Assembly (NCBI GenBank): GCA_918797485.1
Contig: CAKKNE010000004.1
Coordinates: 1,798,001 to 1,862,000 of the forward strand
DNA from: Pelagomonas calceolata
Lineage: Eukaryota
Direction of reading: 5' to 3'
DNA: 64,000 nt
A model generated the notes under the pieces. It was not told where the DNA came from, ran no database searches, and worked only from the letters and a program-made list of their open reading frames with translations. Positions 2,623-64,000 of the stretch are shown piece by piece (position 1 is the stretch's first letter; every line of letters begins with the position of its first letter). Position numbers and translations under genes: made by a program.

Positions 2623-3487
2623 TGTTTTGACTAGTAACATTTATTCTATGGTAACATCCATTACGAATAATGGGTTGCGCTCACACGGTGAGTTCGGGGT
2701 CTCTAAATGAAGCCCATTCTTTTGCAGGGGCGGTTAAGGTGATCGACGATTACCAACTCTGCGTGGCCTCTCGTGCTCCGAAGTTACCCCAGCAAACGGC
2801 TGACGACCACCCAGGACAGATAGCGCATTGCCAAAATATGCTGCCAGTGCGATACAGCTCTTGTCAAAAGTCCAAATCATAGGGGGTTCTCATGATCATG
2901 ATGATTACTGGCATGATTAGCCTGAGGCTAACTTGAATTGGAGTTTCTCATGCCAGTGCGGTTTTTCTTCAAGTTCATTACTTGAAGTATTACTATTGGC
3001 CCGGGGTAGACGTCGACATTGGCCCTCACGAGCTGCCAGAGCATCGCCCGACGTCCATTGGCAGACCTTCGCGTGCACCCTCAGGCTAAATACAGCACTG
3101 GCCGCAGTCATGAACTTGGAACTCTTAGAGCCATGTCTTGAGAAAACGCGCCCTCCGCCGACCTGCTGTGATTTTTTGTCGGAGGGTCGATACGTTCCTG
3201 ATTTCCCCATTCCAAAGATATTCCGAGGCTGGCCCGCTCGCGCCCTACCGTGACCGCAGTAACAACTGCCGCAGTCGCGGCCCGGGCAGGGCTTCATTCC
3301 CAATCAATGTTTTGTCCGGCAGGGCTACGCCATTTAGTTGTAAGTTTCGGGGCTCAGTCACTCCTAGTGACTCACAGTGTACAGTGGACTCACACTCATC
3401 CGATATCCCCAGCTAATACTGAGCTATCCCCCTTATCCCATCAGAGTAGAGCACTCCCTCGTGGGTGTGCGATCGCGGCGCGTGAAC

Positions 3488-6400
3488 ATGCGTGGTATCC
3501 AGATATCAACACCGCGTTTTAAACGCAATCCGCGTGAAGCCGCCGTCGCGACTGTGGCGGCGAGGTTTGCCACGGCAACACCTGTAGAGGTGCCGAGTCA
3601 CTCGGATATATGGGGTGATATCGGTGATGCGGTTCCAAAAGTGCCGCCGGCTGCTGCTGACGACGACTTCGGTATTTGCAGCGCATGCGGTCTCTCTAGT
3701 GTCGTGTGCTATGACAGCTCTAACAAAGACGATGCTGGCGGCACCAGCGATGAGCACAACAATTGTTACGCGGGTGTAGCGAGGCAACAGCGTGGTTCGC
3801 CTATATCCCGAACAAATGGTGAAAGTGCATTAGTGGGAGCTGCTCGACGCGGGGCAACGGAGGCCGTGCGCGCGTTGCTTGGTGCTGGTGCTACCGTGAA
3901 CGTAGCGTCAGCTTCTGGTGAGACTGCGTTAGATACTGCAATGGTCAATGGGCAGCTCAGCGCGGCGCTCGCACTTGTGCGGGCAGGCGCCACAGTGTCG
4001 AGGACCGACGATAGACTTTTGCGCGTTGCTACGCTACGTGGAGATGATGAGCTTGTTTCTCTGTTGCTACAGGCTGGTGCCCCACCACTGCTTGCACGAC
4101 CTGCAACAATTGGTGAGCCCGAACTGCTCGCTGACGAGGAAGAGCAAGGCGCAACGTCATGTCTTCTTCTTGCTGCCCGGCACCCGATAACTCGAATTCT
4201 CAGTGCATACCTTCAATTTTTTGCCGCGGCAGATGATGGCGGACAGGTGCTGCTTGAGGCACCACACGGCCAGCGACACGTGACGGTATGTGCTCTTGTT
4301 AGTGATTCATGCGATCAATTTTTGTTTGTCTTTGTAGGCGCTCATGGTTGCGGCAGCAAATGGCTCACGTGATGATGCACATGCTGTGAAAGCCCTTCTT
4401 GCTGCAGGCTGCTCGCCATTTGCCGCTGATATTGCAGGTCGGTCAGCACTCCATCGAGCTGCTGCTGCTGACAGCAGCACGGTCATCACCGCGCTCACTA
4501 CTGCTGCGCGTCTACGAGTGGAATCCCCGGCTTATCGGGAATTCGTAAATGCGTGCGAAGCGAGCGGTCCAGGCCACACAGCGCTGCATTGTAGTGCGGC
4601 TGCTGGTGCAGATACTGCCATTGCTGCACTTCTAACAGCCGGAGCGGACGCAACAGTACTTGATGCCAATGGCGCGTCGGCTTTAAATGTTGCAGTGACT
4701 TTCGGTCACGCTAGTTGTGTGCAGCAGCTCCTTGGTATGACGGATGCCGTTCTTGACGGTGACATTGCTGTTTGTGTTTCATTAGCTAGACAGGGGAATT
4801 GGCCTGTGGAGGCATGTGTGGAGCTCTTGATTGAAGAGTTAGTCTTAGGGTCTGCATCCTCTACGGTAAATGCTTCCACTCAACTTGGTCCGGCACCGCT
4901 AGCAGCCGCGGCACGCCGTGGCGATATTGAGGCCGTCTGTGCTCTTGTTGAAGAAGCGGGCGCTGACGCTACACTGTCTGGTGACCTCTCGCCACTGGCA
5001 GCGGGAGCAATGGCCGGCTGTCTCGCTGTCTGTGGTGAGTTTGTCTCTCGCGGTGCTCAACCGGCAGCAGCGCTCATGGATAGCGGTTTGAGTCTACTTC
5101 GAGCAGCATGCGCGGCAGGTGACACTTCCGTCGTCCGACGTCTGCTTGGCGCTTTCAATTCTCATGATCTTAATAGTGATGACTTGCGGTCAGCTCTCCA
5201 CGCGGCTGCATCGCGTGCTGATGATGATGCTGTCGAGGCATTGTTGGCTTTTGGCCACTCTCATCAGATGAGTGCCGCCTTCCTCTATCCCCTATCTCTC
5301 AGCAATGACGCTACAACATCATCAATCTTGCCATGCAAGATGCAAAGCTGCGACTATCTGGTACAATTCCCTGAACCCGGCGATGCCTGCGAGCCTGCGC
5401 TACTAGCAGCTTGTCGCGCAGGCGCAACAACTTGTGTTGCAGCGCTGACGCGGCATGCAGAATCGCTGCACGCAGCACTGGACAAAAACCGCCGTTGCGC
5501 ACTGCACCATGTGGCCGCGTGTGACCAAGCTTTGCTTGTCGAGCGACTCTGCAGCCTCGATGGATCCTTGGTGACCTGTCGCGACGCCTACGGAGCAACA
5601 TCGCTGCATGCTGCTGCTGCTGCAGGTGCCGGAGCAGCCATAGGGGCGCTGCTCCGCCATGGCGCTGACGCGACATTTGAGGACTCAAAGGGGCGCACTC
5701 CGCGTGATATAGCTCTTGAACGGAACCAAGAGCGCGCTGCGGCACAGATTGATGCGATGGCTGATGCGATCGACGACGGTGACTTCGACGAGTGTGCGCG
5801 GCTTGCGGATGCCGGGAATTGGCCTGTCGACTGGTGTGCTTTATCAGGCGACACTGCTCTTGTTGCTGCGGCACGTCGTGGCGCTCCCGACGCAGTATCA
5901 CGCTTACTAGCCTGTGGGGCAACTGTCGATGCGGTGACAGACAATGATGAAACACCTCTTGCTGCTGCGGCCACTGCCGGCCATCTCGACGTCTGCGCAG
6001 CGCTTCTTGCTGCAGGTGCCGACCCAACCAAAGTCGCCGACCGATCAGCGAGTCTCCTTGCCGCTGCTGTTGTGGCTGATGAGCCTGAGCTTGTTGATGC
6101 GCTCCTGGCGCGAGGTGCTAGCGCACGGCCTGTTACATGCAGAACTGAGCCAACCAGTGCATTTCTAGTTGCTATCGAACTTGGCTCTCGACAAATAGTG
6201 GACTCCTTTGTGCAGCGTGCCATTGCAACTGGTGCTCTTGATGTGAATGAGCCCCACGGTGACGCACATGTTAGAGCTCTGCACGCAGCCGCCGCTCGTG
6301 GTCGGGCCGATATTGTTCAGAGTCTCCTCAAGGCTGGTGCCCAGGTTGATGTCCTTGATAACAAGGGTAAATCTGCTCTTCACTATGCAGCTGGCCACGA

Positions 6401-6560
6401 CCACGATGACGTGCTGAGAGTCCTTGTGTCGAAAGGGGCTGACGTTCTTCGCAAAGATATGACTGGGACAACCCCTCTTAATGTTGCTATCGCCCAGGGG
6501 GCCAAATCTGCAGAGTCTGCTCTTCTAATGGCGGAATCAATGCTACATCCCACCACGTGA
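3488..6560 (+). CDS. Ankyrin-repeat protein (2 exons; intron about 4285-4337)
   Basis: Many ANK consensus motifs (GESALVGAARRG, GRSALHRAA, GATSLHAAA, GKSALHYAA) in ORFs 3377-4372 and 4344-6560, joined by a GTATGT...TTTGTAG intron. Start codon is uncertain. Confidence 0.85.
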
Positions 6561-9010
6561 AACACTCGACAAATAGTGCTGTGTGAGGAGATATACATCT
6601 AAGCGTGGGTCTGGCTCTTTGCCAGTGCCGCGGATCGGGAATCTCCAACGCCCCGGCTGTCCTTGATGTGCAACTGCTATTGTGCGGCTCTACAGGTTCG
6701 CTCTTTCTGCCCCTGCGAAAGCAAGTTACGCTACTGACTAGGGTAGATGCAGGTCATTTGCCAACTGACTAAATCCGGCTATGGGCACGGTCGCCCCACA
6801 CGCACACACGCACACTAAGTTACTACCATTCCCACGCGCATGGCCCTTTTGAGGTGTGACTTCCGCGTCAAACTTGTCGAGCGGCCAATCGACGCTCAGT
6901 CGCGTAATAAGTGTTTCTCTCCAAGAGGACAACCTGCCAGACAGTGACGAGCCGACTGCCAGACGCCCGGCCCTTTTGTATGTTGGCGGACTGCCCTACC
7001 GTGCGGCATCGGCGCTTAGCTGAGGAAATATTGCCGGGGCGACTCTAGATGTCAGCCGGAGTGTCGCGCCGCCACCGTGGCTCGGGCCTCAGACGCAGCC
7101 CGTAGTTGAATCCCAGCTGCCCCGCCCCGAATCCTCTCCTGGGCCCGACTCGGAGGCTGCTCGCCCGACGCTGGGAGGCAAGGGTGAGTTCTCAAGGGTG
7201 CATTTGCCGTACTGTTCTGACGCCATCCCCGCCGTCCCAGTCCCCTCCCTCTGAGACAGGAGAATGACAGCCCTGGGGTTCGGGATCCCAGGCATCGGGC
7301 AGTCATCCTCCGCCGTTTTCGCCGCGGCGCCACCACTGCCGTCCTCGCCGTCGGGGCCGTCTTCGCGCCGTGCCGTGCCGTCCCGGGCCGTCCGTCGCAT
7401 TTACGTACTAGTCGCATCTTTCTCCGTGGGGCGGACGGCGCCGTCCGGAATGTCGGGCCGTCGTGGCCATCCGCGGCGTTCGCATGTTCGGCCGCCCGGG
7501 CTGCGCGCCATCCTGGCCATCCGAATCAAGTTGGCTATATTTTTCCTACTACTAGTACTAGCCACTAACAGTGAGCCTCAAGCTGTCTGTCACGGTTTGT
7601 CAAGTTGCTGGCTAACCAGCCTGTAGTATCTCCTACTCAGGCTTCTATATGATTAATTTAACAACTTAATTTAATAGCACCCGGGCCATCCATCCTGATT
7701 TTAATCATGGGAGCCATTCTCGTCGCAAACGCCCTAAATAAAACATCATGATGGGACTACTAATCATGATGATTTCATTAGACTTCTATTCTAGCTTGGT
7801 GTGTGTCCTTTCTTTATTAGGTCCAACTTGAAATTATTAGGATATTGCTTCCGAGTCCTTCAAGTTCTGGCAGCGACAATGAAGCGGCGGTCCCGGCAAG
7901 CAGCCCGTACCCTCGCTGGCTTCCTCCTAAGCTCCAGTGGGTCCGGGGCCCACCGGCGGGCCGGCGCTACAGCCTGAGCAGCGCGCGGGCACGCGGCAAT
8001 GCGCGGCCCTTTGCAAGTTATAGTTATATAGATAGCAGAGCTTGAGGATAATCCGAGTCAAGGGAGACCCGGAACATCATATATATATATGCCTTATATA
8101 CCGTGACCTATTAATCTACCTACGGCTCGGAACTTGAACCAGGATAACCCCAGGGGTTATTAACCCCAATTGCGGCCCGGGGTCAGTAACCCGGGTAAAT
8201 ACCCGTCACTACGGGTTACTATTAACCTCAGGACCTTATTGAGGGGTAGGGGAGGGGGGGGCCATGGACATGCCCTGGTACTTGCCTTGGCGCACCTGCA
8301 CGTATCCAAAGGCGCAACGGGCTGCTTGCGCCCATCCGCTCGCCCGGAGGGATCTTTTTCGCTAATCTCACTAAACGGGTTTCGATTGTTAAACTCGTTT
8401 AGCAATTAAGTACCGAGTTATTGACCGGGTTATTAACCCCGGATCTCCTTCGAGGGGTAATTATAGGTTAATAACGGGTAATTAACAGGTTACTTACATT
8501 CCTAGCCTCTTAGAACTTGAAATTATCAGTAGTACCAGTGACGGATTACTTCTAGTATATTCATAAACGCACGCGCAAATTACACGCAAAATACGGCGTA
8601 ATTTGAGTTGACGGGGGGAAGCTTCTCACAGCTCTTCTCACCGTGACGTAAAAAATGCCGTGCTGCGTACCTGCACCCTAGCCATGACCTCCAGTGCCGC
8701 CGCCCTGGGGCTGGGGAGCGGACCTCAGAGGAAACCCGGCTTTTGTGTATGCTCGTAGTCTGCTTAACAGATAGTCAGTCTGAAGGCACTTCAACTTGAG
8801 ATTGAACCAGCCTGAGAAGAAGCGTACATGGAGGACGCTCTTCTAGTCCCCGGGCCCGTTCTTCGTGGCTACCGAGCGAGCACTGCATAACAGAAGCGAG
8901 GAATCTGCCCTGAACCAAAGTTTGCTTCTGCGACCGGCACTTGGTGAACTTGATTTGTCTCCTCAACGGTGACAGTAGTGAAGCCTCAAGTCAACCACAG
9001 TACATGTAAA

Positions 9011-17866: not shown

Positions 17867-18299
17867 GCACACATGTGGCTGCGCCCCCTGTCCGGGGCGC
17901 TGGCAGGTTGCTCTTCGCTCCCATTATTCCCAATATATATAATATTCGGGGCACGCTTCGTAGAGAGACGAGAGAGTAGGGCCCGGGAAGTGGCCCGGGG
18001 GTGTCGTCTTTGTCACTCCCCGGGCCCAGGTCATTCGACCTGAGTCGCATCAAAACAGAGCACCCCCGGAGCTGGGAGACTGAAAATCCTCGCGTTCCCC
18101 CTTGTTTCCCATTCCCCCGAAATTACCAAAACTTGAATGCGTAAAATCATTTATTACGGGGTTTCGTCGGACGCCCCTTTCTTCCCATATTCCCCTTTCC
18201 CCCTTTCTTCCCAGTCCCCCTTTCTTCCCAAGTCCCTAGACGTCCCGGCCCTTGGTATCCTCGGAAAAAGTAGATTTTATCTCCTCCCACTCTTGTTGT

Positions 18300-18900
18300 A
18301 GAAAGTCGTAGTGTAATGATGTCTTTATCTGCTCCAACGTGATCAAGAAGATACATTGCTTCTCTATGTGTCAAATTGAGACTATCCATGACCGTCGCAA
18401 CACTGAGTTTAATAACGGTCACTAGAGACGATATAGTCCGAGTCCCAGTGCCCCTCCATCGCAAGGTAAGTGACCATTGAATATTGTTGCCGTTTTGGTC
18501 CGACTATGAAATTTGCAACGGGAAGTTCGTCCGTCAATAAAAGTGACTGAGGATGATAATAGTCATGGTTGGGACTCGGAGTGAGAGGCGACTTCATCAT
18601 GATGAGCAGGGAAATAGGTACTAGGCGCGCCTTGTGTTTTCGATAGGTGCCATCTGCATCTCGCTTGATCTTCAACACCAGCCTTGTGCTGACGGCTTGG
18701 AATGGTCTAGAGTCACCTCTAGGCTAAACACACCTATTTTGCACAAGTCGCCAATCTCTTTCATTATTGCTGCCACCATTGCTTCACGCTGATCAGGTGG
18801 GTATTCTTCCAACTCAGCAATATCTTCTGGCTTATAGATGATGTCATCTGCATGAAGCTGTATTGATATTTTTCAAAAGTTTGCCGCATCATCATATTGA
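18300..18900 (-). pseudogene. Degenerate Ty1/copia reverse transcriptase fragment with an adjacent partial LTR copy
   Basis: LKIKRDADGTYRKHKARLV matches the copia RT N-terminal K.K...DG...KARLV motif. The frame is broken and abuts an LTR-like segment at about 18500-18595. Confidence 0.65.
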
Positions 18901-25052: not shown

Positions 25053-25094
25053 CTCTCTTCGAGCTAAAAAAGGGGAGGCACTACAAGAATATAA

Positions 25095-43232: not shown

Positions 43233-44572
43233 GGGTTGAACACAATTATTGTACGGTTATTAGAATTAGAATCATCTGCGTTCGGAGGTACCTACGGTAT
43301 AGCAAGAGTATGTCGCAGCGTTACGTAAAGTAGTAGGGTCCTAGCTCACCAGCCAGAGGCTGGGCCAAGCCAACTACGAGAGTGTTTTATAGTAAATTGG
43401 TTTACACACCGTAGCGTCGATAGACACTCAATACATATCTAGGGTAGGATGGGCTAGTAGGTTTCTCTCTCTACTCCCCTTGGACGCGAGCGTTCATCAG
43501 ATGCCCTTCTCCATGTTCAGCGCTTCGAGGTCCGCAGGCGCATATGAGAATCCAGATGCAATAAGTCCTATACGAACTTTACGAGATGAATCATCCGTTA
43601 CCGTGGCAGTTCTGAACGCGATCATGACTCGGATATGACACCGTGACCCACCCCGGGCCGAGGGTGGAGCACGTAGTTGTGCATCACCTCTTCTGAACGG
43701 GGAGAAGGGTGCATCCTCGAGTGCATACTTAAATTTTGGTGGTATATTCACCTTTTGCTCTTTGTAGGCCCGGGTAAATAAATAAAGACAGCGGCCTGAG
43801 TGACTCGGACTCTGACTCGGCCCGGGAGCCTGAGAAATAACTTGAAATACCTGCTAGTACTAGTAGGTAAATGATAAACTTGAAGGAAGCCTGAGGAATA
43901 TCCTAAAAAAAGGGACATGTGACCAAGCCTCCAAAGGCCTCAGGCTTTCCCTGCGCGCCTAGTACTTTAGTTAGGGGCATCCTATTGTTTATAATACTAT
44001 GATACATACAAAAATTAAAAAAAAAATTAGCCTAATAACTAAGCCTGAGGAAGCCAGCCTCAGCTGACTTGGTGACCTAAAACTTCAAGTTGAAAATATT
44101 TATAGGTCGAATTCAGCCAAGGCCCGGGGGGTACAGGCAGTGTGCAGGTTCTATTGTAGTACGCCTATACATCTCTATACTGCCTATATACCTCTTGGAT
44201 TTGGCCAAGGGACTCGCCCGGGCCAAGGGCAGGCCTCCCCGAAGAAAACTTACTAACCAAACTCACTTTCGGCAGCTACCATCTTGATTTCCTGGAGGAT
44301 TTCTCCCGTCCGCAGCCTATTGCTATTCCAGCAACTCTTGCGCAAGTGGCAGTCGTCCCGCGCCAGTTGCGTTCGTGCTGCATCGCACGATCTGTTGGCT
44401 TGACGGCCGTGTTTGCACATCCTACCGACGCCACAACAAAGTACCCAGGATCCCCCCGGAGAGGAAACTGCTAGCACAGAGGCGAATTCACCAAAATTGA
44501 CTCCTGAGTGAGTGAGTACCCCCACTTTTCCGGGTCGAGAAAAACATGCGCCACTAAGGCAAGAGCTAGGCA

Positions 44573-47500: not shown

Positions 47501-50074
47501 CTCGATGAATGGAAGAAGGTTGACTCCCTCCCACGGGTTTCGCTTGCCTTCCATATCAACATCAAAGTCACTTGGATAAAAGTCATGAAGGGGCGATGAG
47601 TCCTCGAGCATCAGTGCACGATGCGGCCGTGGCAACAAGCGAGCACTCGCAGGTGGAAGGCACGACATGAGCTGCTCGAGCGGCCGAAGTGGTGCACTGA
47701 CTTCAAAATGAGCACCAGCAAGCGCAGTAGCAACGTTCACCACATCGGAGAGCATTGGACAGTAGTGACATGGGAAAAACCAACGCCAGTCAACGCATCC
47801 TTTGACGTAATATGCAAGGCACCAAGCGAGGCCCTCTACAAAGGCGGCTGATAGACGTTTGATAACATTCTGCGAGCAACGGACCAATTTCGGTTCGATG
47901 GTCGTCGCGTCCTTCGGTACACCGACGGGACACATCCAGGCGGTCTCCTTTGTTGTGGCGTTGTAGAAGTACGTGTTCCCAGTTGACGGATCCCTGGCCG
48001 AGTTCCAGTCTATCATTGTCTTGCTCTCAGTGGCGATGCCTGCGTCGACAATCTGCTGATCGACCAGACCTGTGTAGAAATCAACCAGTGAGTCAGATTA
48101 CCTGCGCCATTGTGCAGACTCAGTCACGGAGACAATGCTGCGTCTATAATGTGGGCCCCTAGGAGGCAGGGTGCTTAAAATTTGATTTCCACACAAGATC
48201 AGACTGCTAATGCCAAGAGTGCGAAGGTAGTATTTTTCGCGGTCTGAGTTGGTGAGGCCAGGAGCCGACGCTGCGGTAACATTCTCGGTGCCATCAGGAA
48301 TAGTTTTGCCGTTATGGCTCCGTGAGAAACGTCGTTGCTCACGCTCGGCTTCGCGTCTCCGGTCTGCAAGGATGGCGGGCTCCATGGCACCAAGCTCGGA
48401 AATAAAGCGCTGAAGTCGGTGCGCATTGGCCTGTGCAAAAATAAAATTGTCGCGGCTCGTCTCCGCTACTGCTGAATCATGACCTCCACGCCATCGACGC
48501 AACGCCTGCTCGATGGCGTGGCGGTGTAGGTCTCTCACCACTCGATTCAGTCAGCATGGCCGTAATGTCGCCGAGAAATGACTTTGTGATGAATTATCGG
48601 GCGCACCCGACTCAGTAGTTGACTCCCACACAGGCATTTGCTATGTCGCCAGCATCGGTGAGATAGTCGCCGGGAGGCCATGTGGCGAGTTGGCGCTTGT
48701 AGGCGTCAAAGACTCGATTGAACGCGTGTTCGCCTATGTCAAGAGAGGGCGAGTGCGGCAGGAAGTCGTTGCCAACAAAGAAGGTGAGGAAGACAAAATC
48801 ATCAACGAGACGTTCAAGATCCACCGAGCGCCCCGAGACACCTTGTCTCCACGCAATACCGAGCTCATTGCTGCGCCCAGCTCCATTTTTACGAGCGCGA
48901 GGACCGACGCTAGTTCGGGCATCGATATGCGACGCATAGGATGCCGGTGGAGAGCAGCAGAATTCGAGTTGGATGTATTCGCGGAGGATCGAGAGGTGAA
49001 GGAGCTGAAAGTCCGAACTTCGGGACTGCTTGAAAACGGTGGACCGCGCGTTGACAGGTGTATCACGCAGACGATTGTTCGCGCCGAAGTCTATAACCTC
49101 TCGGAGTAACGTAAAGTAGGGCTCGTGAGTGCAGAGGCCCAACATTATCAAATCTGCATCGTTTCCATACATGCCTGCGCAGAGACGGATGGCGTCCTCC
49201 CTCCACCGCGTCGACGCGTTTTAAGTTGACGACGCGGCGTCTACAGTGGCGAGTGGGGGTGTTGCCATCGTCTCTGTGGGCGCGAATATACTGCATTATT
49301 TTATGCTCACCTTCGCCTGGTACCTGTGCGAGAGAAAGTTCGGCATCCCTCCACGCCATCGAGCAGACGCAGTTGTGACATTTGCACCACTGTACACGAC
49401 TCGGAGTCGAGACCTGTGGGTGAAAGACCTCCGTCAATCCACGCCATCGAGCAGAAGCAATTCGAGATTGTGTTTTTGCTTTTGTTCTCCTGCACGGGTC
49501 GACACCACGCCGCGTCCTGTCCCATCTTCCAGCGTATATAACCACGAAGCTTGTCACCAATACGTGCCATAAAGGCGGTCCCTGGCGTGATACAGTTGCG
49601 GTCAAATCCCCCATCTTCGTCTCCCTGACTACGGGCAGATTCCTTGGCCGCAGCAAACCTTCTACTGCGCTGTTGGTTCAGTTTTGCTCGCGGGGCAACG
49701 CCGTCGACGGCTATGAATAGCACTTTTTGCGGGCGCACGATATGCTTTACGATCCGGTCGACGTACGCGAATATTGATAGAAGCATGTCTCTCTCCGATG
49801 GTGTGCTGGTAGCACCCTCTGGATGAGAGCAGGCGTGGATGATGCCGTTCCTACGTGGATGGTTGTGCTGGTGGTGGCAGCTCTTCGACACTGAGTCTGC
49901 ACATATCTAGATACAAATTATCGAACACGGGAAGCAGCGCTTGGTCCTTGATTACGGAGTTTACTGTGTGAATAAACAGTGTGAATAAACAAACAAAAAA
50001 AGAACAATTTGACACGAGTCCGCACTCTTAGGATAGCGCTCGCTGAGCCAGCGATAGAAGCGTGGCACCCCCAT
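44573..50074 (-). CDS. XRN1: 5'-3' exoribonuclease 1
   Basis: MGVPRFYRWLSERYP, DNLYLDMNGIIH, AVDGVAPRAKLNQQRSRRF, FDRNCITPGT, VPGEGEHKIM, YGNDADLIMLGL, GNDFLP, WRWFFPCHY. Introns at 49964-50025, 49851-49902, 49414-49505, 49324-49379, 49175-49244, 48431-48641 and 48070-48204 restore these motifs. Confidence 0.95.
48070..48204 (-). mobile_element. Introner intron in XRN1 (sense orientation)
   Basis: TSD GACCAGAC (48062-48069) / GATCAGAC (48197-48204); CTGTGTAGAAATCAA...TTGATTTCCACACAA termini. Confidence 0.88.
48431..48641 (-). mobile_element. Introner intron in XRN1 (antisense orientation, GC donor)
   Basis: TSD GCATTGGC (48423-48430) / GCATTTGC (48634-48641); CTGTG...CACAG. Removal gives DAGDI|ANAHRL in frame. 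Confidence 0.9.
49414..49505 (-). mobile_element. Introner intron in XRN1
   Basis: TSD GTCGAGAC (49406-49413) / GTCGACAC (49498-49505); contains CCACGCCATCGAGCAG. Removal gives DAAW|SRLRVVYSGAN. Confidence 0.85.
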
Positions 50075-50718
50075 CTCTCTCGCTCGCGCTCGCGCTCGCG
50101 CTGAGCTCTTTATCAAGTCGAGTCGCTGAGCTGCTTCCTTCGCGGCGGCCGCCTGTGGGGAAATCGACGAGTGAGTTATGGTATCGATGCCGTCTAAGTT
50201 CAATGCGTCGATGCCGTGGAACCTCCACGCCATCGAGCAGGTGCGTGAGGCGTCTGAATTTCGATCTCCACACGTCTGCCATACTTATCTCTTTTCGCGC
50301 CTTGCTTAGCTATCGGGTCTATGTACTTACATGTAGATAAGACACTAGCCCGTCAGATTGTCAGATTATTATTCGCGTACTACTTTCTACGTCGACACCA
50401 CGGGCCTTAGAGCTAGTTCTGACACGCAGTGCTCATATATCTCTCTATCAGCGGATAGTTTGCGCGTAGGGTTTTGGGGGCACTTTACGGCTCGTGTGGA
50501 TCCGCATTTGTGCCGCCAGCGCATGTGGAGGTCCTAGGAACTCGTCCGCGCCTGGCGTAAAGAGCGCGCGTTGAAAGCTAGCCGCCTCGGCGGTCTGCGA
50601 GTGCCCAAAAGCCTGGTGCTCTGCGAAGGCCCTAAATCGGCGCGCGACTGCGAACAGATCTCCAAATCCGATTGCTGCCGCGATGGCGCGATGGCGTGAT
50701 GGCGCGATGGCGATGGCG

Positions 50719-51684
50719 ATGACGCGCGGCAAGTTGTTTACGGAAAGTAATGGCGGCCTGGGCATGGTGGCACGCATGGCCATGCAAGTGGGTGGTCATT
50801 CTGGTATGCTCACGATAGGGAGATATTGCCTAAAACCAGTTCAATCTGGCAATCGAGGAATACGCGAAGTGACATTCTATGAGCAGTGCCTTCATCGCGG
50901 CGATGGCGTGGAGCAGCTCCAACCATTTCTGTGTGATTACCACGGTGTTATAGTGTTGGGAACAAATGCGTGCGAGCAGCACTATCTCGTGCTGGATGAC
51001 TGTACGAATGACATGGCTCGGCCATGTGCGCTCGACATCAAGCTGGGAACGCGAACGACAGAGCCCAACGCTTCTTTGAAGAAGCAGCGCAAGCAGCTTG
51101 CAAAATACCCTCCCCAAACTGAGTTGGGCTGCCGTCTTGTTGGTATGCGTGTGTAGTCTGCCGAGTGACATATCACGTCGATGGGTGAGGCGCCAGAAAT
51201 TTGACTTACACACAGGTGGTCTCGAAGCCAGAGTCAGTATCTTGAGTTCGACAAGGCGTGGGGTTTCACCGTTCGTGATGCAACGGGGATTCGACATGGC
51301 TTCATCGAATTTTTTGGTGGTCATTCTGAGCTTACCAATAGACGGTTGCTCACCAGGGAATTTATTAGGAGGCTCAGAGCCCTCCTCGACTGGTTCGAGC
51401 ATCAGGACCAGCTCGAATTCATTTCGTCTTCCCTTCTTCTTGTCTATAATGGTACTGGCGAAGCTCTGCTAGCTCCCCAAGCAGTACAGCTCAAGATCAT
51501 AGACTTCGCACATGTGCTCGCACATGTGCGTAGGGGCGCTTTCTCAGACTCTGGGTATATCGAAGGCCTCAGGAAAGTAATATCTCTTCTCGAGGACATC
51601 TCCCATGCGAGACATATTGAATTCCCAATTGCCAAGCCTGCCAGTGCGCAAGCGGACTTGCAAGCGGTGCAAATCAGCATGTAA
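50719..51684 (+). CDS. Inositol polyphosphate multikinase (IPK family), intron about 51153-51214
   Basis: QVGGH, PCALDIKLG (PxxxDxKxG), SSSLL and IDFAH motifs. Start codon is uncertain. Confidence 0.88.
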
Positions 51685-51944
51685 TCAAAGTCAGTGTAAT
51701 GTCAGAGTGTAGTCTGAGGCATTGCGGGAAGCTGCGTAAATTCCAAGTTTCTACCCGACGTACTCTACGCGTCCGAGTTACACATGCACTAAGGTGTGTG
51801 TCTGCCCTGCGCATTGCCCGATGGGGAAGCCTGGAAGGGCCCACGCAAGGTTTACAGACACTTGGAGGTCGGAGGACGAGAACCATTCGTCCAGCCCAAG
51901 CACCGGGAAGACGAATCGGGGCCCGTCTACCGGGGAGCACAGGG

Positions 51945-52257
51945 TGCGATGCATAGGGAAATAGAGTGTGTAGCTCCGGATTTCCCCGGTAGCGTAGTGT
52001 AGTCGTCTAACGAAATGGTTTCTCCCCGGGCCATGTTTGATGGGGTTTGTGACGGGAAATTCGTCCCGGGCCGTCAATAAAAGGTGACTCAGGATGATAG
52101 TTAGGAGTGAGAGGCGACTTCCCCCTACTAAGGGGATATCGGAGTACCCTAGGATGGGAAGTAGCCTAAGCGGGTAATACAAGTACGGGTTGTGCTTGGA
52201 TACGTCTCAGTTGAACCTTTGGGATCCTAGTAGTACTAGACGTGTATTTCCATTGCA
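51945..52257. mobile_element. Solo LTR with 5-bp TSD (CAGGG)
   Basis: TG...CA termini; CAGGG at 51940-51944 and 52258-52262; four other homologous copies in the window. Confidence 0.85.
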
Positions 52258-52552
52258 CAGGGGATCTGAATCGCCTCGTAGACCCCGCCCGGGCAGGTAT
52301 CTAGGTATACTTCTCAACGCTATTAATAGCATCGTGAAACCGTGACGCGCCAGCGGATGAATGATAACTTCCTTCAAGTTCGTCCGAGTCGATGTAGTAG
52401 TTACTAGCCTGCCAATGAGTCCGAGTCTTTGTATGGATGGGGTGCGAGTTACTAGTACTCCCAGTTTCGACTCGGACTCGGACGGAGCTCTCATGTCCCC
52501 GGTACTGGAAGTATGAATACATACTAGACTGTCCAGCGATAGTCTCCAAACG

Positions 52553-54852
52553 ATGATCGCGTCGGCGTCTGTGCCGTTTCACTCGGCATCGCTGTATGTT
52601 GGCGACCTTGCTGCTGATGCTTCTGAGGTACGTTGTGCATACCTTGACGTTATTAGTGTATTTCGCAGGGCCTGCTCTTTGAGATCTTCAACACAGTTGG
52701 CCCTGTTGCATCCATTCGTGTTTGTCGCGATGCAGTAACACGTCGAAGTCTAGGCTATGCGTACGTCAATTTTCACAACGTGTCAGATGCTGAAAGGGCA
52801 TTAGACACAATGAACTATACGCTGATCAAGTCTAAACCATGTCGAATTATGTGGTCGCAACGAGACCCTACGCTGAGGAAATCGGGGGTGGGCAACGTCT
52901 TCGTAAAGAATCTTGACGCCTCCATTGATCACAAGGCCTTGTTTGACACTTTTTCGTTGTTTGGAAACATCTTGTCATGCAAAGTGGCCACAGATGAGAC
53001 TGGGCAGTCACAAGGATATGGTTATGTGCACTACGAGTCCGAGGAGGCCGCAACTGATGCGATAAGCAAGATAAACTCAATGACCATATGCGACAAGGAG
53101 GTGTACGTTGGTCACTTTGTGCGGCGTACCGAACGGTCAGGTCAAGCAGATTGGACAAATCTTTATGTGAAAAATTTCCCCGCTGAATGGGATGAGTCCA
53201 ATTTGCGCAAAACATTTGAACTGTATGGAGCCATTACCTCGTGCAAAGTACAACCCCTTAGGATTTCAATCAAGCCAAAGGCTGAAGAGACCGTTGGAGC
53301 AAAGGAAGCAACATCCGCGGCACAAGAAGCAATGGACGAGGCCAAGCACACGCGTCACGACGCTGGTGAGGAGCTGCCGCCTTCTGTGGCGAGAAGCGGT
53401 TCCACGGCTACATCAATTGATGTAAACTCAGGAGAGTCAGCTTCACCAACTGAAGTATCTGCCTTCGGATGGGTTAACTTTGAGCACCATGATTCTGCTG
53501 TTGCTGCCATAGAGGCGCTCAATGGAGCAAGTGAGTTGCCTCAAAAGGAGAGCGGCTCCACGATACATCTCAAAGCTCCGCTCTTCGTTGGTCGAGCGCA
53601 GAAAAAAGTTGAGCGCGAGCGCGAACTTAAGGCCAAATTTGATGCAGCTAAGATAGAACGCATCAAGAAGTATCAAGGTGTAAACTTGTTTGTCAAGAAT
53701 CTAGATGATGCCTTAGATGACGATCAGTTGCGGGAACATTTTGCGGAATTTGGCACAATAACTTCTGCGCGCATCATGCGCGAACCCGCCTCTGGTACTT
53801 CTAGAGGTTTCGGGTTTGTGTGTTTTTCATCACCTGAAGAAGCTGCCAAAGCCGTCACTGAAATGAATAACAAGCTGGTCCTCGGTAAGCCAATTTTTGT
53901 TGCGCTAGCACAGCGCAAGGAAGTGCGTCGCGCTCAGTTGGAGGCTCAACACGCACAGCGTCGGACCCCTGGCCCCTATGGTACACACCCTGGTACCCTT
54001 GGACCTGGTGGTGTACCAAGTCACGGGCCTCAGGGTTTGCATCCGGCACATCTGGCTGCGCCGTACGGCGCCGCAATGCCTATCATGTACGCTGCAGGTA
54101 CACCTGGCGGTCACCCTATGGGAATTCCCCCCCAAGGCCACCCAGGCGTTCCTATATCGAGTGTCCCGCCAAACGCTCGTGGCTATGTTATGGCTCGCGG
54201 CTCACCTAGGGGTCCAATAGCAGATCCACGGACAGGCTTTCACGGAGGTGGGCCTCGTCAGGGAGCATACCCAATCCATCCCGGACAGATGCAGCAAATG
54301 GGAGGCCAGGGTAGTTCCAATAGACGTTCTCGAAACAGGGGAGGACAGGGCGCGCAAGCTCAGGGGGGTCAGCAGTACAAGTACACACAGAATGCGCGCA
54401 ATGCCGCCAACATGGCTCCTAGTATGACGCAACTTCCGCCTCAGGCCCATCTTATGCCTCCCACTGTCGGTCAACAGCCTGGACAAGGTTTTCCTGGTGG
54501 TCCTGGAGTGGCACCACCTATGCCACCACCATTGCCCCTCCAACAGCCCAGTGCGTCTGGCTCTGGACAATCGCCGCGACGCCCCCCTGAGGACCCACTT
54601 ACATTGTCAGCCCTTGCCAATGCCTCCCCAACACTCCAGAAGAACATGATCGGCGAGCGCCTTTATCCCCTGATCCATCACTCTCAACCTGAGCTAGCTG
54701 GCAAGATTACTGGCATGCTACTTGAGATGGACAACTCCGAACTTTTACATCTTCTCGAATCACCAGATGCTTTACGAATGAAAGTAGCAGAGGCCCTCGA
54801 AGTGTTAAAGCAGCATCAGGCGCAGCTCCAGCAGGTGTCTCGCGAGGACTGA
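52553..54852 (+). CDS. PABPC1: Polyadenylate-binding protein (4 RRM + MLLE)
   Basis: ASLYVGDL, SLGYAYVNF, RIMWSQRDP.LRKSGVGNVFVKNL, QGVNLFVKNL, QKNMIGERLYPLI...AGKITGMLLEMD. Short intron at about 52628-52668. Confidence 0.96.
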
Positions 54853-55094
54853 TTTTGGGCCAATCAAAATTACTTGATCCATGGGTTTAGAATATTACTG
54901 AGGATATGGGAGCTCAGTTCTCGGGCCGAGCCCTGGTCGTGCCACTGCAGCGGGGGGGGGGTTATTTTGAGGTTGTCTTACAAGCAGTGCGCAGCAGGGG
55001 GAATTGAAATGGAGCCCGGGTGCCAGTGCCACAATGTCCAATTCCCGGGCCAACCTTGGGTTCCCCGGCGGCAGCATTTGAGGGGACTTGCAGC

Positions 55095-55368
55095 ATCCGC
55101 CAATAAAAGTGACTCAGGATGAATGTATCATAGTTAGGAGTGGGAGGCGATCATGATTTCCCCCTATAACTTGAAGGGGATATCGGAGTACCCTGCAGGG
55201 TGGGACCGTGACGTAAACACCTAGCAAACGTTTACTTCTCCCCTCCGAGAGGCCTCCAAACACTTGCCATCACGTCCCACCCTGGTACCCTGCTAGGATC
55301 ATGGGGGTAGGTAATACAAGTACGGGTCACGGTTGTGCATGGATACGTCTCAGTGAATTTCCATTGCA
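55095..55368. mobile_element. Partial LTR copy carrying a nested MITE
   Basis: Aligns with the 3' half of 51945-52257 and ends in CCATTGCA. Confidence 0.7.
55196..55284. mobile_element. hAT-like MITE (TIR CAGGGTGGGACGT, 8-bp TSD GTACCCTG)
   Basis: TSD at 55188-55195 and 55285-55292. The element is absent from the other LTR copies. Confidence 0.85.
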
Positions 55369-56143
55369 ACCCCCCATTGGAGGCCCAGGCCCGGGGTTGC
55401 CGCCGGTCTCTTGTTCAGGGGCTGCCCGGGGGCCATTTTTATGAGGTTCGAGATTTTGACGGCCCGGGTGGTCTCGTGGGCCCATTTCTGTAAAATCTGT
55501 AAAAAGTATTTTGTGTATCTTTGTTCAGATTTTTACTAATCATTGGAACAACACACACATATCACTGAATACCCAACGCTAAGCATCGGCAAATCATAAA
55601 AAAGTATTTCCCAACTATTACCAGAAAATTATACTTTTTTACTAATTATTGGACTTACAGTCTCATAGTCCGCCCCATCGCAACGCCTACGCCCGTTGGG
55701 CTTGACGTTGCTCTTCCCACCGAGGGCGGACGCGCTCGGTCGCTTCGCTCCCACCGTGACGTCGCCACCATCCCCTACTCGGCATTGGCTTCGCCAATAC
55801 CTGCGTTGCCGTGGCGACTTCGCTCATTCCCACAAAATGTATGAAATTCGTTCCACGCCTTTAGGCGGGGGACTAATTTTGTTCGTTTTCGAGTCCGTCA
55901 GGATGGGACATAAAGTATACATAATCCCTATACTACTCGACGATGCGGCCTACCGTGACCACTTTCATCAAACTTAAGGCAAAATGTCCCCGTGGATCTA
56001 GAATTTGTTTGTTTGCACTAAGTTGTAGCTCGGATTGCTTCACAACTGGCACTTCGATACAATTTTGGCTACAATTTTGTGGTAGTTGCGACCCTCACGA
56101 CAGGTGATTATCAACTTTTTGGCCCACCTCAGCGATCTTGCAC

Positions 56144-57599
<1,456 letters not shown>

Positions 57600-58838
57600 C
57601 TAGTATGGGCCTAGAGTGCACTAGTATACATGTAGAGTATAGTTACTCTAGATAAGCCCTGTGCTCAGCAGTCGCGTGTGCTGCCACGGGATAGTGCGCT
57701 GGAAGAACCATAGCCAGGACTTCACAGCGATGCGCACGAGAAAAGCTGGCCTGAAGTACGGCCCTTCCGACGCGCCCATGTTGGCCCCCGCGAAAATTTT
57801 TTGCTGAGCCGAGGCTGACCGAAGGTAACAAAGTCAGTGGAACGCGCAGGGGCAGTATTTGCACCGATTCCGTCGCTGAGACCATGTGCGGCGCTACGTA
57901 GAAGAAATCGCCAGGCGGCATGTGCCAAAAAGGCAATGGATCAGGCACATGCGTGGGGTAGCCTCGGCCACTGCGACCGCATTCGAGCGCTCGAGAAGCT
58001 GGAGATGGTGTCGTATTGTGTGTCGCGGTGGGGACCGTCTCGCAGTCGACTAAAAGTCCCCGAACCAAACAATGGGCCTCGAGGCGCAGGCGAGGAGAGA
58101 ACAACCCCTGTGAGCGATAATTGACGCTGAGGAGCCCCAGAAGGCGAAGTGAAGGGGGTTGTAAAAAAACGGGGGGGGGGGGGTCCGAAATTTATCTAAA
58201 TTTCAAAGTTTCCTACTAGAAGTAGGAGCCCATGTCTCGGGCGGCGCCCAGAGCTCCAAGTGGCTCTCCCTCGCGCCATTTTTGCGCGTCTCAGTTTGAA
58301 ATCCATTAGCTTCCGCCTAATTTGATGGCAGCGATGCCACCCTGTACCCCGTGGCAGCAACTTGAACCGCTCGGCGGACATCAAAACAACGTCACGGTAC
58401 CGGTATTTTCAAGTTTTACCTAGCTACCCCCTCATTTCCTAGCTGTGTTTATTAACTGTGTTTATTACACGTTGCGTGTTGAAGGGTGATGTAAGTGTAT
58501 AGGAAGGGTATAGGATAGGGGGGGGGGGTATTTCGCCCTACCAGTATTTATCGAACTCCGAGTCTGCTCGGAATTTACCGTGACGTCGCAAAGGCCTACC
58601 TAGACGCTTCAGTGGCTCGGGAGGCGTGGTCTACACGCGAGGGGTTTAGGATCCTGCTACTTTATATAACGCTGCGACATACTCCTGCTATCATGTATCA
58701 TCCCATAAGTTAACATAAGTTGTACTCGTGTACCCGCCCTGTACTGTACCAATAGGTATCCTTACCCTTGCTCTTGCTTATCCAGCCTTCTGAGCACGGT
58801 CTGCCTATGGCTCCTCGCCACTAGCTGGCATCTACAAA

Positions 58839-61181
58839 ATGACTGATAGTTCTATATCTACAGTCTACGCGTGGGGCTGCTTGAATAGGCGTGGTGCTGC
58901 GCAGACCTATCCCTTGCAGATGCATGGATTGAGCGGTGAAAACGCTATGAGCTGCGCAGCGGGTACAGACCATAGCTTAGTTTTATTATCTTGCGGTGCA
59001 GTTTGGGTGTGTGGCCAAGCCGACGATTGCAGAAGTGATGTCCTACGTCAGGGAACGTCTGATTCAGGGATGACCTTTCCGATGCAGCAGGCAAAGTTCG
59101 ATGGAGCGAGGATTAGCAGCGTTGCCGCCGGTGACAGTACATCGTTGCACCACAGAGTAACACGCTCTTTTTATCTGAATCATACATTCTCTTGTTGAGT
59201 AGGTATGCGATATCTCATTGTGGTAAGGTTTATTCGTGGGGGCAGGGTCGCTACGCTGTGCTTGGACACAATGATGGTGAGCAGAACCACATTATGCCAG
59301 CTCGTATCAGAGGATTCCCAGAAGATTCAATAGTGCGGCGTATTACATGTGGACGTTGGCATTGTGCGGCACTAGTCGACAGACATCAGGTGTTTCTCTG
59401 GGGTAGAAACCACTGCGGGCAGCTCGGCCTTGGCTTTTTATCGCGCGCCTGTGTTACTCCAGTAAAGATTCTACTCGAACCCGACGAAGATTGCCTTCTG
59501 TCGGTGCGTGATCTTGCTGCTGGCACAAATACCATCGTCCGCTTTGAATATGTGCGATAGATCGCATCAAGGATAAGCATAGTGGTGTTGTAGGAGAAGC
59601 GCACACAGTGGTCATTGCTGATGCCGGTCATGCTGGATTGGATGTCCCAAAGCCGCGTTTATTCAATTAGCCACATGAATGATCACCTGCTACCTAGAAA
59701 CACGAGAGCTTAGGCCCGGGCATACTCGTGGGGAGATCCAAATGATTCAAGACTTGGTGGGGTTGATGTAAGACTGCATCATTCACCACAGCTGGTCAAA
59801 ACAATAAATCATACCCTTGAGCGTCTTCGCTTGAATATTGCGAAAGAGGCTCAGCAACCAAAAAATTCAATTGTTTCGTGCGGGATTGCACACACACTTG
59901 TCCTTACAACGACAGGTCAGTTCCTAGCGTGGGGCTGTGGCAAGTATGGCCAACTAGGATATGGTGATCTCTGGGACAGGGAGGAGCCTGTTGTGGTTCC
60001 AGGTGTGCATTCGGTCCTTACATTTGCAACAGGCAATAGACACAATATTGCAGCCGCATGCCGTGCCTTTCAGCGCATCGATGGTTTAGGATACGCAAAA
60101 TAGGTTCAAAGGGTCGCTGAAGCTCACGCTGCTCTGGCCAAACGTGAAACTGTATACGCCTGGGGCTCCAACGCCTTCGGCGAGCTTGGTCTAGGTGTGT
60201 CCCTGGTATTCATTAATGATGCAAGTTTTTGCGGCAGGTGACACAAATGTTCGCCTACAACCTGCCACGTTGTGCACGCTCAATGAAAGCATAAAGGGCT
60301 GTGCTGCAGGAGCACGTCATAGCCTTGTTCTTGCTCGTGCCTCAAGGTGAAACTTGATCCACATTATTTGCGACGCTAATGTGATACTGCATGTAGCACT
60401 CGTTCTAGGAATGCCCCATGGAACAGAATATCTATTCATGGTGACAGCGAGGAGATATCGATCTTCCATTTTGATGTACTCCGTAATAAATTCAAGGACA
60501 GAAGACAAAGTCACGTCTTACCAGGTTCGCATTAAAACAAGTCATTGAGATATTGATCAAGATATTGGTGTGCCAAGGTTTACGCTATTGTCTTGACACG
60601 CTACCAGCCGATCAAAATGCTAGTGTTCGCTTCACCTACGAGAGTGTTCTGAGGTGTTTTCCTTGTCGGCAGTCCTATGTGCTTCTTCACCGTGGCACAA
60701 AATTACATTAAACCGCTGATGTATCCATTCAATGTTGTAGGTATGTCGCTCTTGTGCGCGGCGATGCCACACGAATCACAATGTAGAGGCTAAGTTTGTC
60801 AGATGGATGCCAAGCTGTGATAGATGTGGATGTGCTGAAAGCGGAAGCTGTAGTGCTGCGTGGAGTTGGGAGCGCAGTATTTTTGACAATTTTGTGACCC
60901 AAACAACGACTTCTCCTAACAAAGTCACCGATGGAGTTCTAGATATGCGACACTTCAAGGAGTTACTACAAGTCATGCACCCCGAAGGGCTATCGGAGGA
61001 TGACATTGACTCTGGTGAGGTTGCCTTACATTCAAGAGCTGGGACTATCACATGGGCTGCGTTTCAAAAATGGCATAATCCGTACTTTGAGGTGATCACT
61101 TCTTGTTTCTCCCTTTGTCTGATTCTCACTCCCTCTGCATCTTAGGAAATACGTCGCGCAGCCGAAGTAGATCAGACTTGA
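58839..61181 (+). CDS. RCC1-repeat protein with a C-terminal Cys/His-rich and EF-hand-like region, multi-exon
   Basis: RCC1 repeats (CAAGTDHSLVL, YSWGQGRYAVLG, WGRNHCGQLGLG, WGCGKYGQLG) spread over several exons. Confidence 0.75.
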
Positions 61182-62053
61182 TTCATATATTCAAGGCTAT
61201 TTCAACTCACCACGGCTAGACACATTGGCGCTTTCTATCTTGGGCTGACCCGTGGGTGTGGACGGGACGCGCAAACACGGCCGTCAAACCTGATGGGCTG
61301 CCATACAGATCGCATACGCGGCTAAAGACGCCAGTAGCGAGACGTCTGGCCACTAGCACTTTCACACCTAAGCACCTGGAGACCAAAGTCAGCCCAAAGC
61401 CAAATGATTACAGTCGTTGCAGCTCGCCCATAGAACAAGACGTCCGCACGCTCCAGGTGGGCTGACTCACTGCAGACTCACCCCTAGGAGTGGTCGATGT
61501 GACTTTGCGATATTGCGTTACTCTAAGGCCAGTGTTCTCATCAAGCAGCACCAAAAGCGTCGTTGCGACGTGTGTTTGCCCCTTGCTCGTATGCGGGATG
61601 TACACCCCCCCCGGGCCAGTACACGAACAGACTCGGCTCGTGTGGAGCCCTAATCGTCCTCGAATTTACTGTCCGACGCCGAACCCCCATTCTAATGATC
61701 GTCAAAGCTCCATTCAGGTCGCAATTTGTTTGAAAGCGACTAATTTTTTTGACGTCGTCCTCAGGCTAGGGACGAAGAAGCGGAGGCGTTCAAGTTCTAA
61801 CGGCGTATCGGACGCCAGTGCACACCAGGCGGGGCGTGCAGATTGGGATTGCTCCTTCGTTCTCGGACTTGCGCAGCGTCCCATTGGTGTCCAAAGTTTT
61901 TTCAAGGGATGTCCAAGTGATCTGCCATTGACGCCCGCCATATGGTCTCCCGACCGGCCGCTGGTTGACACGCGGCGACGGAAAAAGATCGCGCGCTCAA
62001 GTGACCACGCGCTCAAGGCGAGCGGTATAGTACTATTAGGATAAGCGATACTT

Positions 62054-62228
62054 TGCGATGCATAGGGAAATAGAGTGTGTAGCCCCGGACTTCCCCGGCA
62101 GCGTAGTGTAGTCGTCTAACGAAATAGTTTCTCCCATGTTTGATGGGGTTTGTGACGGGGAATTGCGTCCGTCAATAAAAGTGACTCAGGATGATAATAG
62201 TTAGGAGTGAGAGGCGACTTCCCCCTAC
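62054..62228. mobile_element. Partial LTR copy, fused to a putative retroelement-internal ORF fragment (62172-62663, minus strand)
   Basis: Near-identical to the 5' half of 24714-25052. The adjacent ORF has no motif I recognise. Confidence 0.65.
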
Positions 62229-62662
62229 AAAAGTCATGGAATTCAGTATTTCGGAGTAATCAATCTCTTTCTGGCTATTGGACCAGTGCTCAACGTAGTT
62301 AGCCACTGGCAGTAGACAATAATCTTTGACATGTTCATTTACGTCATACGTAGTCCCAGGTAAATGTTCGGTAGACTTTTCTGTTGCGTACATAAGAGAC
62401 TCGGGCTGGTACTTGATCGCCACAAGCTGCGCTTGTGTTATACCCAGTGCCTTGGCAATCTGTTTATCTTGCTCATAAAGACTCCAGATCTTCTGTTTCT
62501 CAGCCTTCGATAGGTGTCTGCTGGGTCCTGTTTCGTTTCCATAGTTGGTGAGGGAGCTTTTTGGTTCGTACCACAGTTTCATAAAGTTGAAAAAGCTTTG
62601 ACGGTCAATTCTCTCTCCCCCGGAACGGAGTAGGGTCCAGTCAGCTTGAGCACCGTTCTCCA

Positions 62663-62689
62663 TGTGTGTGTGTGTGTGTGTGTGTGTGT
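62663..62689. repeat. (GT)n microsatellite
   Basis: Direct observation. Confidence 0.95.
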
Positions 62690-62828
62690 AGACTGTTTAG
62701 AGGCTTGGTCTATGTCCTTTTCTTTAGGATATTCCTCCCTTACTAATCAGCATGATAGTAGTAATCATGATTACTAGTAATTATTTATTTACCGTAACTA
62801 CCTCCACTGGCAGTCTGAGCCTGAGGTC

Positions 62829-64000
62829 TTACTCTACCTCCCCCACCTCCTCTTTTACCAAACCTTCATCAGCTGGAGGCATATACCCTTTCTCATCCGG
62901 GAGAAGTACCACCCCGACTGTTTTATGGATTTGTTCGAGAAGATTTGATTCCAGGTAAGGGTGCAGGGCAATGTTTCCTTGGCGCATTTGCTGAAGCAAA
63001 TCGAAGGCGTCGTGTGCATTTCCTTTTTTAAAATGATACTCAACAAGAAGAGCGTACGCATCGCCAATCCGAATTGCCTAAATATCAATAATAAAACGCA
63101 TACGAAGCTCAATCGGGGGAAGCCACACAAATACCCACTGTTGTCGCCTCTCGCCTGCTCAAGATGGCAGTGCACATATCAGCCATCTTGTGAGGATCAG
63201 ACTTTTCGTACTTTCGGGCTTGGACAAAATCAGTAACAATAGCTATCCGTGATTCAAGAACGTCAATGCGGCATTCCCGATCAATCAATTTTTTGGCTTT
63301 CTCGAGTTGTTGTTTTGACTCTTTTAGTGCATCCAAAGCCTTCTCGTAGTCGCGAAACTCATCTATTTCCATCTGCGCATAGGCATCGTAGAACGCAGCA
63401 AGAGGTTCATGTGCACGTGCTTTAGTGTAGAACTCAACAATTCGTTTTGTCAGCTCGGCCGCATCAGTCGAGCCCGATTGCCAGTCCAGCGACTGGAGAT
63501 AATTTGCTGCTAGTATATATATGTCACGATTCCGACTCACAGAAGCGTAATATATGATATTTTTTGTGTCTCCGCTTTTCAACAAACATCTTAGAGCGCG
63601 AGCACGATCACCAGCCTGGGTAAACTTTTTGCATGCAAGTTGATAGGAGTTTTGCTTCTTACACACACGTGCAAGATCAAGAATCAGCTCTACACGCTCA
63701 TCATGGCTTATTGCTGGGGCCTTGTGTGAGATTAATGAATACTGCTCACCTTTACCACTACTATCATCATGATCTCGGTATTTTTCTATCTTTGGGGGAG
63801 TCATTGCATCGGCAAGCTCCTCCGTAATTGTGACATGGTGTTCACAGCAGAGCATGATTGCCTGCTTATATTTCCCACCCCTGATATACAGCCTGACAGC
63901 CTGCTCGTACTGACCGTGCTCGACAAAGAATTCAGCGCAGCGCGCTACCACATTGGGTGGAGCCGAGTTGTCTAGTTCTCTAGAGATAGTGGAGAGAACT
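62829..64000 (-). CDS. IFT140: Intraflagellar transport protein IFT140, C-terminal part
   Basis: ACKKFTQAGD...LLKSGDT..II.YASVSR..IYILAANYLQSLDW and AQMEIDEFRDYEKAL. The last exon reads RIGDAYALLVEYH...GEVE*. Confidence 0.93.

Follow-up and report, generated by a model that had tools for sequence, protein, structure and literature searches.

Polymorphic 6-bp insertions that follow one target-templated rule in the spacers of a Pelagomonas calceolata region, likely but unproven footprints of transposon excision

We analysed a stretch of 64,000 bases (the window) from the Pelagomonas calceolata contig CAKKNE010000004.1 (positions 1,798,001 to 1,862,000). The window is gene-dense, with a G+C content of 46-65%, and Pfam annotation of its open reading frames (ORFs) identified ankyrin, DSPc, EML, LRR, MIP-T3, XRN1, PABP, RuvBL1, RCC1 and IFT140-like genes. 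RuvBL1 is 92% identical to its closest named match, a protein of Aureococcus anophagefferens, which places the host among the pelagophyte algae, and the stretch is present in 20 public sequencing runs, most of which are marine metagenomes. According to the accessible parts of two studies (PMC9481584, bioRxiv 2024.10.30.620910), each P. calceolata chromosome has one trough of 52% G+C, taken as the centromere, against 63% elsewhere; we infer that the window corresponds to one of these troughs, in P. calceolata or a close relative. The spacers between its genes are packed with 8-mers that obey one rule, XY-C-revcomp(XY)-G-XY, where a dinucleotide is followed by C, its reverse complement, G and the dinucleotide again (16 possible rule words). 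These words are 6-bp insertions, or scars, that segregate among wild alleles; their origin in transposon excision is likely, though unproven.

In the window, 177 rule words were detected against 17.9 expected under an order-2 Markov model, and 11 control spacer pairs gave 13-56 words each. A sequence-only reading had proposed the rule and named enrichment over control 8-mers as its check; the enrichment is there, as are all six words that it placed at 2895, 2919, 2930, 2951, 2968 and 2998. When all 16 spacer pairs were compared with 10 dinucleotide shuffles, C..G spacers were found 160 times in non-genic DNA (6.9±1.8 in the shuffles) and 16 times in genic DNA (15.2±2.3). The next spacer pairs in non-genic DNA were also elevated (G..C, 41; G..G, 28; C..C, 26), probably because nested scars read in shifted registers and decayed copies are counted among them. 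With a refined gene mask, non-genic DNA holds 156 words in 21,593 bases (7.2/kb) and genic DNA 21 words in 42,407 bases (0.5/kb). The earlier impression that scars are scarcer in exons therefore stands and can be sharpened, since the exon count is at chance level. Rule words make up seven of the 12 commonest 8-mers of the window, counted on both strands, and recursive removal strips 161 scars, or 4.5% of the non-genic bases. The scars were rejected as a cause of the low G+C, because the average scar adds about two-thirds G+C by arithmetic from the rule.

Fourteen of the 16 dinucleotides serve as targets, giving 14 different words. Among 142 non-nested sites, CC/GG targets were seen 30 times (20 expected), CG never (8.9 expected) and GC once (10.0 expected), and the remaining dinucleotides track the background. 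The little target specificity that the sequence-only reading assumed for all 16 dinucleotides thus applies to most of them, but not to CG and GC. No specific excess of CG or GC sites healed as a 3-base XY-C/G-XY product was detected in a comparison of low power, and at these small numbers a shift of such sites to the 3-base product is a possibility. Flank bias is mild: C precedes XY in 37% of sites, G follows it in 37%, and the empty sites of filled/empty pairs show varied flanking bases, so the spacer C and G are not derived from the flanks.

Fourteen of the 156 scars are nested within an older exact scar. One-mismatch neighbours of the rule words number 287 against about 181 expected, which indicates that older, decayed copies exist. 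Once the full scars are taken out, there is little or no excess specific to shorter products (the spacer-free form, 134 against 105±14). The unit length is narrowly defined in non-genic DNA: units of 2 bases give 156 words against 7.0 expected, units of 3 bases, again spaced by C and G, 8 against 0.4, units of 1 base 85 against 106 and units of 4 bases 0 against 0. Five of the eight 3-base words are built on G+C-only triplets, and this rarer version fits a target site duplication (TSD) of variable length. No 8-base triple with the grammar of the rule was found in the non-genic DNA of the window. At 8131-8160 there is a single forward-inverted-forward triple of a 7-mer, spaced by A and T.

Five copies of a repeat resembling a solo long terminal repeat (LTR) were identified in the window (24714-25052, 51945-52257, 62054-62231, 55093-55368 and 18512-18595); exact rule insertions, such as those at 52025, 52065 and 55326, distinguish them. 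The copy at 51945-52257 (+ strand; TG...CA ends, 5-bp TSD) is a neutral substrate whose scars at 52025 and 52065 are missing from other copies. Metagenome contigs of the family that lack the six bases at 52025 have depths of 134.5/134.5 (X6), 264/264 (X9) and 296/636 (X14), against 11-26 for single-copy DNA. This family-wide absence makes the scar the derived state, that is, an insertion. Judged by contig depth, the family has some ten or more copies. An 89-bp element sits within one LTR-like copy (55196-55284); its perfect inverted end measures 11 bases as it stands and 13 bases after removal of the scar at 55205. These 13-bp inverted ends are accompanied by an 8-bp TSD, a length by which the element is hAT-like.

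A metagenome scan returned at least 119 loci, five of which are allelic contigs of the region (L034, L059, L078, L100 and L134; L034 and L059 are one haplotype). Plain alignments with the window contain rule indels in both directions, and removal of the scars brings the alleles into register with the window. In a scar-aware alignment the rule explained 28 of 74 indel events in L034, 8 of 16 in L078 and 16 of 51 in L100, and the control rules G..C, A..T and T..A explained 0-2; the scoring favours scar calls but gives the control rules equal favour. L059, as the same haplotype as L034, L134, with one indel, and two large blocks each in L034 and L100 were left out. An alignment-free search for filled and empty sites with 11-base flanks, among repeat copies and allelic metagenome contigs, found 20 pairs for C..G and 3, 5, 1, 0, 0, 0 and 0 for seven control spacer pairs. 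When 109 indels of 1-18 bases were tallied without assuming the rule, the distribution peaked at 6 bases (n=23); 16 of these obey the rule, 5 are tandem and 2 are other, some events possibly being counted twice. The 6-bp polymorphism that the sequence-only reading had proposed to look for is therefore present.

Over whole spacers, we counted 40 scars per 99 substitutions in L034, 5 per 10 in L078 and 17 per 40 in L100, a ratio of 0.40-0.50 in all three allele pairs (three of the nine allele-by-spacer comparisons were omitted as not comparable). At about 0.4 scars per substitution, the process is recent or ongoing. No rule indel occurs in the aligned genic columns of the three alleles (14,724, 7,815 and 7,396 columns), and other indels of a multiple of three bases do occur there (44772, 45242). 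The earlier idea that scars add two codons to proteins is unsupported, given this absence and the lack of a genic excess. An assembly artefact is ruled out, as the scars are also present in independent metagenome contigs: one (X6) matches 40659-41336 with 0 gaps, and L134 equals 43202-44009 at 99.6% over 808 bases. Repeat copies, filled/empty pairs and the indel spectrum together bear out that the rule words are deterministic, sequence-templated 6-bp insertions at XY.

The scars are spread over the spacers of the window. The first (2620-3479) contains 10, including the six named above, and 22 lie between converging genes at 6561-9010. Seven accompany a decayed LTR-like copy at 17943-18700, eight are found at 22156-23515 and 18 at 24353-25938, where the LTR-like copy 24714-25052 is empty at two sites filled in the copy at 52 kb. 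The spacer at 32237-33540 has 13 scars and two overlapping words of the 3-base rule (32441, 32450). The spacer at 51601-52656 has 10, of which 52339 and 52373 are empty in other alleles. Ten more lie at 54853-56143, where 55326 is empty in the paralog and in alleles and 55205 splits the inverted end of the 89-bp element, and 13 flank an RCC1-repeat gene (57600-62831). The densest spacer, 40561-42114, holds 28 scars (10.8% of its bases), many of which vary between alleles. The spacer at 42913-44572 holds 19 and shows 25 scar differences to L034.

Larger differences between the haplotypes were also seen. L100 is without about 1 kb of the densest spacer (40854-41852), L034 carries at 40647 a 201-bp insert similar to 43390-43470 of the window, and 83 bp at 44553 are present in three allelic contigs and missing from the window. 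Between the XRN1 and IPK genes (50110-50660), the window, L034/L059 and L100 have three unrelated fillers of about 550, 430 and 1,570 bp, respectively; these are nearly scar-free, as if recently imported. At 43487, L034/L059 carry an 8-bp insertion that is a spacer-free forward-inverted-forward triple of a 4-mer, a single case with the shape expected of a border-cutting (Transib/RAG-like) enzyme.

A second stereotyped insertion, of 9 bp, converts GTAC to GTAC-CGTAG-GTAC or to the reverse complement of this word and often forms arrays (18995, 19043, 23202-23300, 24931, 40634-40690 and 43285); the 201-bp insert of L034 lies in one of these. At about 40634, the insertion is absent from L100 and present in opposite orientations in the window and in L078/L034, so that one site was hit independently in both orientations. 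These insertions have the same C...G spacing and are perhaps the footprint of a GTAC-specific element. A high-copy repeat with TTAA-like edges and no clear inverted ends occurs at 25091-25216, 41348-41456, 43893-43935 and 62695-62742; its contig depth reaches about 500 at 41378, compared with 11 in single-copy DNA. A very high-copy motif (bin depth 1,385-7,735) lies in or near XRN1 (48483-48525, 49348-49454, 50205-50244) and upstream of a glycosyltransferase ORF (19745-19796, 20215-20245), and is probably the introner family described for pelagophytes. The inverted pair 19745-20241 was rejected as an element, as it belongs to this introner-like motif and lies in a probably genic stretch.

The form of the scar constrains how it is made. 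The inverted middle follows the target, so a hairpin or a template switch is needed, and the constant C and G are independent of the flanks and must come from elsewhere; most simply, they would be the terminal bases of a departed element. We regard it as likely that the words are excision footprints of a cut-and-paste DNA transposon whose ends are C...G and whose TSD is 2 bp. Insertion of the element would duplicate XY. On excision, the transposase would nick one base inside each end, so that the terminal C left on the flank forms the tip of a hairpin, XY-C-revcomp(XY). A host nuclease would then open each flank hairpin two bases beyond its tip, and the 3' overhangs, ending in revcomp(XY) and XY, would pair; filling of a 3-base gap and ligation would give XY-C-revcomp(XY)-G-XY. 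Artemis prefers to open hairpins two bases past the tip. A single product would dominate because this opening coincides with the 2-base duplication. The shape of the product suggests a covalent flank hairpin. Genes would be spared because the harmful stage is the inserted intermediate, not the scar. The excision hairpin and microhomology rejoining envisaged by the sequence-only reading thus fare well in that the geometry would yield the exact product, and less well in that no transposase was found in the window and its one candidate element has no paralog among the loci searched.

One possible maker is a 206-bp candidate non-autonomous element at 43504-43709, with CCC...GGG ends, inverted ends alike at 15 of 17 positions and a 2-bp TSD (TG). 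None of 100 simulations yielded a comparable inverted-end pair, at a threshold chosen after the element had been sighted. Four scars lie inside it, which makes it old. Several points weigh against excision of such an element as the source of the scars. The candidate is present in all five allelic contigs, and its CC..GG ends differ from CA..TG. No paralog was detected with a metagenome pattern that accepted only intact ends and lengths of 176-206 bp, as five of the at least 119 matching loci are the same locus and 114 are unrelated, nor in a viral collection, where all 20 matches to the end motif are due to chance. No transposase was identified by Pfam among 30 long and 113 further ORFs of the window or by Atlas look-up of two unexplained ORFs, Rfam showed nothing mobile, and none of the sites in the allelic contigs was seen to be occupied by an element in one allele and scarred in another. 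The accessible text of PMC9481584 describes no transposon build-up in the low-G+C parts of the genome of P. calceolata, and the P. calceolata gene table names only a Tc1-like transposase among the entries listed there. The mechanism gives no account of the avoidance of CG and GC, one product dominates here whereas known hairpin footprints are varied, and we found no report in the literature that combines a nick one base inside an element with hairpin formation on the flank. The ratio of 0.40-0.50 is also steady across the three allele pairs, as would be expected of a resident process more than of a burst. The viral collection gave no match to the LTR motif, the triple-scar pattern or RuvBL1, and five unrelated matches to the introner-like motif.

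The steadiness of this rate, together with the excess of one-mismatch words, suggests a long-lived process and is the main attraction of a host enzyme as the maker. A domesticated transposase or a Spo11/topoisomerase VI-type enzyme with a 2-base stagger would break the DNA, and an untemplated C, hairpins and microhomology rejoining would produce the scar with no mobile element involved. Spo11 and topoisomerase VI do cut with a 2-base stagger, and Rev1 is a deoxycytidine monophosphate transferase. The single dominant product and the failure to find an element family among the metagenome loci, viral loci and window ORFs are in keeping with such an enzyme, and Spo11 and further meiotic genes are reported in P. 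calceolata in the accessible part of PMC9481584. However, an insertion made in one step and preserving the frame should sometimes persist in loose regions of proteins, and a genic excess is absent. Topoisomerase errors yield plain duplications, DDE transposases are known to close hairpins with a one-base loop and host ligases are not, and the 3-base version with the same spacers would require a second stagger. We therefore consider a host-enzyme origin rather unlikely. Only slightly more credible is its broader form, a standing, near-deterministic mutator in which a domesticated or host enzyme uses an undescribed chemistry of constant-C-tipped hairpins at a rate close to that of point mutation, perhaps chiefly within low-G+C centromeric regions.

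A replication or repair polymerase that switches template twice within a few bases would produce a miniature inverted triplication, and forward-inverted-forward is the shape of such products in the accessible literature on origin-dependent inverted-repeat amplification (ODIRA). Template switching copies flank bases into the junctions, however, whereas the spacers here are always C and then G, and its tract length should vary, whereas the 1-base and 4-base forms show no excess; we judge it improbable. An origin in motifs selected for protein binding or centromere specification, or in an assembly artefact, is suggested by the restriction of the words to non-genic DNA in a region with the G+C reported for pelagophyte centromeric troughs, but this origin is largely refuted and retains almost no credibility, because fourteen different words obey one rule in proportion to background dinucleotides, appear and vanish between alleles, land inside repeats and older scars, and recur without gaps in independent contigs (X6; L134 at 99.6%). 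Some scars may nevertheless have come into later use as binding sites.

Hairpin footprints as such are already known. As far as the full-text literature shows, subscription journals being outside the search, what is new is the fixed rule with constant C and G, its density and a rate near that of point mutation. Among the matches listed in the same search, no publication links Pelagomonas to such footprints, and the word 'motif' is absent from the accessible main text of PMC9481584. In the spacers of a eukaryote, one readable rule is responsible for about half of the indel events and adds about 0.4 events for every substitution. It changes how non-coding DNA evolves and how it should be aligned, and motif finders will be misled by it. 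If transposon excision is the source, each scar records an insertion and an excision, and the scars form a dense, strain-resolved map of transposon or break activity though few transposons are seen. If a host enzyme is the mutator, every scar marks a past break in a datable and nearly irreversible way, and the process has written a measurable part of the non-coding sequence of an abundant ocean alga.

Compared with known systems, the scars share with Ac/Ds (hAT) footprints an inverted flank copy around one unpaired centre base and rejoining by microhomology after hairpin opening. The accessible text of PMC5873905 describes palindromic bases and mostly microhomology at Ac/Ds footprints, with 28 kinds in 128 clones. 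Those products are varied and the TSD is 8 bp (5-7 bp in some hAT lineages), whereas here the spacers are always C and then G and the unit is 2 bp. The hAT centre base complements the flank base adjoining the element (from the parts seen of PMC5873905 and PMC2921059); C before and G after every XY would be needed, and each is seen in 37%, which excludes this geometry. Flank hairpins are reported for hAT, Transib, RAG and MULE enzymes, and excision of Muta1 is more than 90% precise (both in excerpts of PMC5499845). With RAG/Transib and MULE the scars would share a hairpin on flanking DNA, opened by host enzymes. An exact-border cut of the RAG/Transib type leaves no centre base and a spacer-free product, whereas the dominant form here carries both spacers; the canonical Transib TSD is 5 bp, and that of MULE is long, at 8-9 bp. 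The known cutting geometries of hAT and RAG, which the sequence-only reading had listed with CACTA, thus do not yield the constant C/G spacer.

Tc1/mariner elements have a 2-bp TSD and leave terminal element bases in the footprint, as proposed here. They target only TA and form no hairpin; in the window, 14 of 16 dinucleotides are used, TA accounts for 6 of 142 sites and the middle is the reverse complement of the target. The pelagophyte introners are a different element with an 8-bp TSD (PMC9860276, in part). The scar predicts that the element is nicked one base inside its end and that a hairpin then forms on the flank, a cutting geometry that is unlike those mapped for hAT and RAG/Transib and may be that of the poorly studied CMC group. 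In the accessible CMC literature we found neither footprint sequences nor a cleavage map for such an enzyme. No CMC/CMCT transposase (EnSpm/CACTA, Mirage, Chapaev, PlavakaB) was found in the window, and the candidate at 43504-43709 ends in CC..GG; CMCT elements mostly end in CA..TG, of which the scars would reveal only the first base, C and G. By the accessible parts of PMC12730594 and 10.64898/2026.08.26.747230, CMC/CMCT elements have C...G ends and TSDs of 2-4 or 2-5 bp, within which the unit of 2 and rarely 3 bases would fall if it is a TSD. The 2- or 3-bp TSD of PlavakaB (PMC12730594, in part) parallels the common 2-base and rare 3-base scars. By their ends and TSD length, CMC-type elements appear to fit best (PMC12730594, 10.64898/2026.08.26.747230 and 10.1101/2025.05.19.654958, each as far as accessible), and a CMC/EnSpm-type transposase would be the likeliest maker of the scars.

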